Source: Myxococcota bacterium (lineage in GTDB: Bacteria; Myxococcota_A; UBA9160; PR03). From it: a stretch of DNA of 44,086 nucleotides. Positions 18,620 to 18,872 of this stretch are shown here, piece after piece; position 1 is the stretch's first letter; the number at the start of each line of letters is the position of its first letter. The position numbers were made by a program, and so were the translations under genes. The notes beneath the pieces are model-generated. The model saw only the letters and a program-made list of their open reading frames with translations. It ran no database searches and was not told where the DNA came from. The stretch is from contig JBFGJV010000001.1 of the NCBI GenBank assembly GCA_041577015.1, positions 1-44,086 of the forward strand, written 5' to 3'.

Positions 18620-18668
18620 TTCGGCACCGCCCTTGACGGCCGGGGTGGCATCGGGCACCGTCTGCCCG

Positions 18669-18725
18669 ATGCGGACTGGAACAGCGCGACTGTCTCTCGT
18701 TGCAGGCTGGTGGGCGTCTCGTTAG
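18669..18725 (+). CDS. trpL: trp operon leader peptide, 18 codons with tandem Trp codons
   Basis: ATG CGG ACT GGA ACA GCG CGA CTG TCT CTC GTT GCA GGC TGG TGG GCG TCT CGT TAG translates to MRTGTARLSLVAGWWASR*. TGG TGG is at 18708-18713. The ORF sits upstream of trpE(G) and is followed by alternative helices and a terminator. Confidence 0.7.
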   Translation: MRTGTARLSLVAGWWASR

Positions 18726-18763
18726 GCGAGGCGGCCCCGCGCATCCACGCTCCGTGAGCTTTC

Positions 18764-18790
18764 GAGGCCGCCTCTTCGAGGCGGCTTTTT
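18764..18790 (+). terminator. Attenuator (intrinsic) terminator of the trp leader
   Basis: GCCGCCTC (18767-18774), loop TTC, GAGGCGGC (18778-18785), then TTTTT (18786-18790). The 5' arm is also perfectly complementary to GAGGCGGCC at 18728-18736, which would act as the antiterminator. Confidence 0.7.
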
Positions 18791-18872
18791 CGTTGCAAGG
18801 GACCGCCGCCTCGCATCCGGGGCTGCGGTCCTTCCTTTCGGGGTCCCGGATGGCGGCGGGGAGGTGACAGCC

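Follow-up and report, generated by a model that had tools for sequence, protein, structure and literature searches.

That the rhizobia attenuate trpE(G), which encodes a fused anthranilate synthase, by means of a leader peptide is textbook knowledge. The trp leader of Escherichia coli, which controls the trpEDCBA operon together with TrpR, carries a Shine-Dalgarno along with a 5' UTR, and a single terminator. S. meliloti has a trpL attenuator 5' of its trpE(G) gene (PMC4962803; Bae and Crawford 1990, as cited in PMC6614838). This rhizobial element terminates transcription, and its attenuator RNA, RcsR1, since renamed rnTrpL, is leaderless (PMC6614838). Trans roles have been described in Sinorhizobium for both rnTrpL and the peptide peTrpL, rnTrpL destabilising the trpDC mRNA (PMC6614838, PMC7298713). 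The definition of the corresponding Rfam family, RF02552, drew on no genera other than Sinorhizobium, Rhizobium, and Agrobacterium (PMC4962803). A search of the literature for trp attenuators in Myxococcus or the Deltaproteobacteria, or for leader-peptide attenuators that have their terminators in tandem, brought up no relevant work.

The fused trpE(G) locus and its leader

The window, that is, the whole stretch of 44,086 nt analyzed here, belongs to a 3.2-Mb MAG of 368 contigs. A preliminary description had proposed that an 18-codon ORF with TGG TGG near its stop codon lies upstream of a fused trpE(G), and that four segments ending in TTTTT can form mutually exclusive helices. All the coordinates given for the ORF proved right, and those of the four segments and of the U-run were accurate to the base (Table 1). 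The assignment of the regulated gene also agrees with the domains of its 717-aa product, in which Anth_synt_I_N (PF04715), Chorismate_bind (PF00425), and GATase (PF00117) were identified by Pfam. Segments 1 to 4 and the U-run sit 83 nt 5' of this gene.

Table 1. Coordinates of the features of the trpE(G) leader region in the window
Feature	Position	Strand	Remarks
-35 box of the predicted leader promoter	18633-18638	+	TTGACG; 36 nt 5' of the ATG
-10 box of the predicted leader promoter	18656-18661	+	CACCGT (matches at A2 and T6); 17 nt from the -35 box and 7 nt from the ATG; layout common to relatives
Leader ORF (trpL-like)	18669-18725	+	ATG to TAG; 18 codons; encodes MRTGTARLSLVAGWWASR; without Shine-Dalgarno
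Tandem Trp codons	18708-18713	+	TGG TGG; the putative regulatory codons
Segment 1	18712-18721	+	GGGCGTCTCG; anti-antiterminator, pairs with segment 2
Stop codon of the leader ORF	18723-18725	+	TAG
Segment 2	18727-18737	+	CGAGGCGGCCC; begins 2 nt past the stop codon; partner is segment 1 or 3
Segment 3	18764-18774	+	GGCCGCCTC at 18766-18774; terminator 5' arm or antiterminator 3' arm
Terminator 1 stem	18764-18788	+	11 bp, directly 5' of TTTTTCGTTG
Segment 4 and U-run	18778-18790	+	GAGGCGGC at 18778-18785, TTTTT at 18786-18790; 3' arm of terminator 1
Second hairpin (5:6)	18799-18839	+	hairpin at 18799-18832, then TTCCTTTC; terminator-like
Segment 5	18805-18813	+	GCCGCCTCG; perfect 9-nt complement of CGAGGCGGC at 18777-18785 (segment 4)
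Segment next to the trpE(G) Shine-Dalgarno	18852-18864	+	GGCGGCGG (18852-18859), then GGAGG
Fused anthranilate synthase trpE(G)	18873-21026	+	717 aa; regulated gene

The gene 5' of the leader encodes a dodecin and ends at 18581. Between its stop codon and the -35 box there is a 9-bp GC hairpin at 18594-18619, GGGCCCCGC(N8)GCGGGGCCC, followed by TTCGG, which is probably the dodecin terminator and would separate that gene from the trp leader. At the other end of trpE(G), an ORF for a methylase of the SpoU family (Pfam PF00588) is found at 21019-21759; if the GTG at 21019 is its start, it has an overlap of 8 nt with the end of trpE(G), and the two genes may then be cotranscribed and controlled by the same attenuator.

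The leader ORF has a predicted promoter in front of it, recognized by comparison alone, as a scan for the sigma-70 consensus returned no promoter. The arrangement shared by the relatives is TTGACN, a 17-nt spacer, NANNNT, about 7 nt, and then ATG or GTG. TTGACN was present 34–39 nt 5' of the in-frame start of the Trp-codon ORF in 36 of the 45 non-redundant loci described below, and at exactly 36 nt in 24. This geometry of the -35 box, the -10 box, and the start codon would place the start of transcription at A18669 or right beside it, and the leader ORF is thus probably leaderless.

A perfect 10-bp inverted repeat, GCATCGGGCA / TGCCCGATGC, occupies positions 18648-18672, sharing bases with the predicted -10 box and with the ATG. 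Since transcription from about 18669 would leave the 5' arm of the repeat outside the RNA, an RNA hairpin hiding the start codon is unlikely; a role as a DNA operator is possible. In the nearest relative (L082), the inverted repeat is imperfect (ATCGGGCA ... TGCGCCAAT) and there is, in addition, a different short dyad, AAACCG/CGGTTT.

Mutually exclusive helices

In the window, segment 3 at 18766-18774 is a perfect 9-nt complement of positions 18728-18736 in segment 2. The local fold energies are -20.3 kcal/mol for the 1:2 helix (18706-18740), -27.2 for 2:3, and -19.0 for 3:4, and the 3:4 hairpin was also picked up by a terminator scan. When a ribosome was represented as a mask at the stop codon (through 18734-18740), the MFE structure contained the 3:4 terminator; with the ribosome stalled on the Trp codons and the RNA extending only as far as segment 3, it was the 2:3 antiterminator. 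The exclusive helices proposed earlier therefore switch in the masked folds as the model requires. At full length, the terminated and antiterminated states are nearly equal at equilibrium (-28.6 against -30.1), so that the choice between them has to be made kinetically, as the classical model also holds. The stability of the whole-leader fold is not out of the ordinary (z = -0.94); the support for the attenuator is comparative, not energetic. The U-run of terminator 1 consists of only 5 U, which counts against the attenuator.

Conservation across trpE(G) loci

For the comparison, 110 loci were fetched around relatives of the TrpE(G) protein, and the last 300 nt of each of the 97 distinct upstream regions were scanned for a short ORF in which WW or WWW is followed by 2–5 (rarely 8–9) codons and then a stop. 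Such an ORF lies 5' of the fused trpE(G) in 56 of the 97 loci; dinucleotide shuffles gave 0.87 ± 0.93, and never more than 4. In the family to which the window belongs, trpE(G) is fused in all 16 genomes (69%–81% identity) and the WW(W) ORF is present in 13; two lack it, and in one the contig is truncated. The peptides of the relatives, for example MRAFLHGWWWRPCS and ...WWWLPRS, are not conserved outside WW(W).

According to the record titles, the loci come from Myxococcota, Binatia, Methylomirabilota/Rokubacteria, Acidimicrobiia, Acidobacteriota, and Alphaproteobacteria, with some MAG titles looking unreliable. Implausible titles were found at L002, L009, L012, and L030 (“uncultured Enterobacteriaceae,” “Spirochaetales,” “Nitrosotalea”), records that group with Binatia, Myxococcota, or Methylomirabilota by their TrpE(G) and leader. 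Because of such titles, any taxonomic spread based on them is to be treated with care.

Different leaders were observed at the fused-trpE(G) loci L058, L059, L067 and L046, L051, L053. The Gemmatimonadota and Latescibacterota records have in common a 39-aa ORF, ...QSDLFTWWPFYGTRRHVMRSGA, with WW in the middle, and the Chloroflexi records have a hairpin, GCCCTCGTCCCG...CGGGCGAGGGC, the short-ORF scan finding no WW ORF in them.

The 45 non-redundant loci were aligned (alignment A2). The core of segment 3 is GCCG(C/T)C and that of segment 4 is G(G/A)CGGC, both invariant except for those two positions. In the 3:4 terminator, 97.8% of the cells pair, and its covariation was reached by 0 of 500 shuffles; it is the pairs flanking the core that covary (e.g., AU 22, GC 15, and GU 7 times). 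T-rich tails are the rule in this alignment. In many relatives, segment 1 is GGCCGCC directly after WWW.

To locate segment 2, the stretch that best complements the terminator 5' arm was taken at every locus. These stop-adjacent segments of the GGCGGC type start 10–18 nt from the first base of the final Trp codon in 42 of the 45 loci. The spacing is kept even in Binatia loci with a stop codon 8–9 codons further on, and is what the footprint of a ribosome predicts. At most loci, no more than 5% of shuffled regions pair with segment 3 as well as segment 2 does. Position +6 changes jointly in segments 2, 3, and 4, being (A,T,A) 23 times and (G,C,G) seven times. In the 2:3 helix, 88.3% of the cells are paired, a high value that is partly by construction, given that segment 2 was chosen as the best complement of segment 3. 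Covariation of this helix was not above that of shuffles (113/500), because its core never varies. Thus, of the pairings for which conservation at orthologous loci had been suggested as a check, the terminator covaries and the short ORF is conserved, and for 2:3 the complementarity and the spacing are kept, but not a covariation beyond chance.

These comparisons contradict two other readings of the sequence, namely that the ORF arose by chance and that the hairpin merely serves as the usual terminator for the dodecin gene upstream or for an unrelated small RNA. ORFs are plentiful in GC-rich DNA and, as mentioned, the energy of the whole-leader fold is not unusual. However, the dodecin gene has its own hairpin 5' of the -35 box, and the ORF, the spacing, the promoter, and the hairpins are kept 5' of trpE(G) despite a different upstream sequence (56 of 97 loci against the 0.87 of the shuffles). 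Both readings were rejected, and we regard them as extremely improbable.

Covariance model and inheritance

A covariance model (R1) was built on the region from segment 2 through the U-run. In the window's own genome it has one strong site, the attenuator described here (56.3 bits), and in five other whole genomes it also has one strong site each, always 5' of trpE(G). Among sampled genomes, it matches 7 of 151 from the window's phylum and 15 of 121 relatives of a Binatia genome, one of the latter matches (L127) being an ordinary terminator. With a single strong site in each of six whole genomes, the model, which goes back to alignment A2, could serve to annotate such elements.

In a FastTree phylogeny of 91 TrpE(G) proteins, the window's protein falls within a supported clade of its own order (97). 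Attenuator types cluster on this tree, with 16 changes against 37 in shuffles, a clustering which indicates that the element was inherited with the gene.

Proposed mechanism

The sequence features were observed directly, with their energies and, across phyla, their conservation, spacing, and covariation, and we infer the transcription start, the termination, and the response to Trp. Very likely, the fused trpE(G) is controlled by transcription attenuation that is mediated by the ribosome and senses tryptophan. Transcription would start at or next to the leader ATG, making a leaderless mRNA. With Trp-tRNA plentiful, the ribosome would reach the TAG and cover segment 2, upon which the 3:4 terminator would form and RNA polymerase would halt at the U-run near 18786-18790. 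With Trp-tRNA scarce, the ribosome would stall on TGG TGG, covering segment 1 and freeing segment 2, which could then capture segment 3 as it emerges, so that the terminator would be blocked and trpE(G) transcribed. Attenuation by stalling on WW had been proposed in the preliminary description, and the conserved ORF, the covarying terminator, and a segment 2 at footprint distance support it. Beyond that proposal, the comparison adds that the leader ORF is probably leaderless, that the element extends across several phyla, and that a second hairpin is conserved.

A second hairpin and a possible relay

After the first terminator, the window has the second hairpin 5:6, with the arms GGGACCGCCGCCTCG...GGGGCTGCGGTCCT and a fold of about -27 kcal/mol. 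Such a hairpin was also found in the Myxococcota kin L082, L088, and L093, in the Methylomirabilota locus L005, and in many loci of Binatia, where it is mostly followed by T5–T7; the tail of the window's own, TTCCTTTC, is a weak U-tract, which speaks against a relay. In an alignment of 20 loci with a second hairpin, from three phyla (A4), 89.8% of the cells of the 5:6 hairpin pair, five pairs change on both sides, and the covariation was reached by 0 of 500 shuffles.

Segment 5 is, in addition, complementary to segment 4. The local fold of this 4:5 pairing in the window is -20.9 kcal/mol, less stable than 5:6. In the window, its duplex did better than every one of 300 dinucleotide shuffles (p 0.0); p is at most 0.05 in 22 of 41 loci. 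Across the 20 loci, 92.7% of the cells pair, against 34%–71% when the partner is slid; the covariation is modest, being reached by 28 of 500 shuffles. In all three phyla, segment 5 lies 13–19 nt after segment 4, with a complementarity of 8–10 nt that includes bases unused in 3:4. In L088, L007, and L125, the pairing extends into segment 4 bases of the 3:4 loop, and segment 5 is therefore not simply a copy of segment 3.

We suggest, with somewhat less than even confidence, that segment 4, when freed by 2:3, pairs with segment 5 and so blocks the second terminator-like hairpin. The leader would then be a relay of six alternating GCCGCC/GGCGGC-type segments in which one ribosome stalled on WW controls two terminators. 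In the armed state, 1:2, 3:4, and 5:6 would form, with both terminators; in the disarmed state, 2:3 and 4:5, with neither. We propose only tentatively that such a relay operates and that the module is an ancient one, passed on together with the fused trpE(G) among Myxococcota, Binatia, and Methylomirabilota and sharing its ancestry with rnTrpL of the rhizobia. If it works, a single sensing event would be propagated along the RNA, tightening the on/off ratio, and the design would be a compact and portable one for synthetic attenuators.

The folds depend on how much of the RNA is present. With the RNA ending at segment 5, the MFE structure contained 4:5 in 20 of 20 loci when 2:3 was formed and in 5 of 20 when segment 2 was masked. 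With the full 5:6 hairpin present, 5:6 won in 12 of 20 loci, the window included, when segment 4 was free, and in 18 of 20 when segment 2 was masked. These results fit a kinetic relay (1:2 + 3:4 + 5:6 against 2:3 + 4:5) without proving one.

The stability of 5:6 over 4:5 in the window, and its success at equilibrium in those 12 loci, also fit a simpler arrangement, in which the attenuator has a single stage and the hairpin at 18799-18832 is independent of segment 4, acting as a fail-safe terminator against basal read-through, as a 5' stabilizer of the read-through mRNA, or in the control of trpE(G) translation at its ribosome-binding site. In the MFE structure of 18789-18885, CCGCCGCC at 18804-18811 is paired with GGCGGCGG, adjoining the Shine-Dalgarno of trpE(G), which also fits a single stage, and most of the window's family does without hairpin 5:6, having instead a GGGAC...GTCCC helix around the Shine-Dalgarno. 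On the other hand, an unregulated and efficient terminator placed after the attenuator would cap the induced expression, and the position of segment 5 in three phyla, together with its complementarity to bases beyond those of 3:4, argues for a link between the two hairpins. We would put a single stage a little below an even chance.

The family members without the second hairpin are L003, L006, L009, L011, L086, L089, L092, L096, and L097. Their last ~30 nt contain GGGACGAAC..GCAGGAGAGTCCCGATG, in which GGGAC/GTCCC brackets the Shine-Dalgarno before the trpE(G) start, and this helix may be a translational element in place of the second terminator. In the Binatia and Methylomirabilota loci L005, L028, L030, L034, L037, L044, and L114–L128, GGCCCGGCTCC was observed 3' of the second hairpin. 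It complements CGGAGCC, the 5' flank of segment 3, and in several loci RNAfold predicts a long-range helix enclosing both hairpins; it may be a seventh segment of the chain.

Control could also be mainly translational, the translation of the leader refolding the long 5' region and so exposing or hiding the trpE(G) ribosome-binding site, with hairpins that are inefficient terminators in a GC-rich organism. Several homologues have poor T-runs after 3:4 (e.g., L005, L012, L016), and GGCGGCGG, besides adjoining the Shine-Dalgarno, can pair with segment 5. We consider a main effect of this kind very unlikely, as the window has TTTTTCGTTG directly after an 11-bp stem, T-rich tails prevail in the alignment, and the homologous rhizobial element terminates transcription (PMC6614838).

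Possible action in trans

In addition to attenuation in cis, there might be action in trans by the attenuator RNA once it is released (~120 nt), or by the peptide of 18 aa, in the manner of rnTrpL and peTrpL, for which such roles are documented in the rhizobial homologue (PMC6614838, PMC7298713). The trp genes of the window's genome are in separate units, of which a trpG-trpD unit, located on a different contig, is not matched by the attenuator model, and the conservation of the GCCGCC/GGCGGC core exceeds what a hairpin by itself would require. Against this, the leader peptides are not conserved outside WW(W), and in a duplex search against the trpG-trpD locus (L113), 23 of 40 shuffled RNAs did as well or better, in a search which allowed full-length duplexes and is too crude to exclude a short seed. 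We consider an additional role in trans unlikely.

At L113, on contig C51 of the window's genome (G000), the separate trpG-like gene lies directly 5' of trpD. A TrpE/PabB-like fragment (36% identity) was also observed, on a small contig (C311).

Comparison with known systems

No Rfam family matched anywhere in the window at the gathering thresholds. The best sub-threshold match was RcsR1 (RF02552), with 16.6 bits (E 0.71; threshold 60) over model positions 1–96 at 18697-18791; the remaining matches at E up to 10 were sub-threshold noise. Among the related loci, the best score against RF02552 was the 29.3 bits of L073, and the other alphaproteobacterial relatives fail RcsR1. For RF00513 (Trp_leader), no match was obtained at the gathering threshold, nor at E up to 10 in 18500-18950. 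The link to the rhizobia made in the preliminary description, which had also called for the Rfam scan, fits the weak full-length match to RcsR1. The likeness to E. coli TrpL drawn there stands as regards WW near the end of the leader, and does not extend to the RF00513 covariance model.

With the E. coli trp attenuator (trpL, RF00513), the locus shares the logic: a leader of 14–18 codons that has WW close to its end, helices 1:2, 2:3, and 3:4 that exclude one another, and a terminator with a U-run. It differs from it in having no sequence or covariance-model similarity. The leaderless polycysteine ORFs of mycobacteria are comparable in that a regulatory short ORF stands at the first base of the transcript, which implies ribosome loading without a Shine-Dalgarno (bioRxiv 10.1101/834739). 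They sense cysteine, however, and belong to another phylum with other downstream mechanics and no sequence relationship to the window.

The closest resemblance is to the rnTrpL of S. meliloti. Both elements stand directly 5' of a monocistronic fused trpE(G), with the other trp genes in separate operons, and both have an ORF, leaderless by prediction in the window, with consecutive Trp codons 2–3 codons before the stop (the window's ends in ...VAGWWASR). Three stem-loops, of which SL2 is the antiterminator and SL3 the terminator, and a terminator core of GCCGCC...GGCGGC followed by a U-run are likewise common to the two. The differences are that the window comes from a Myxococcota-type MAG, has WW instead of WWW, and carries the extra conserved 5:6 hairpin. 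By these likenesses, the window's element would function as the rhizobial attenuator does and has the look of a distant homologue, outside the curated RF02552.

The presence of leader-peptide attenuation of trpE(G) here is not surprising in itself. What is added is the module, a predicted leaderless WW(W) ORF, a GGCGGC segment next to its stop codon, and a GCCGCC/GGCGGC terminator, which accompanies the fused trpE(G) across several, mostly metagenomic, phyla and which no Rfam model captures. In a subset of these loci, including the window, it is joined by a second covarying terminator-like hairpin that is complementary to the first.
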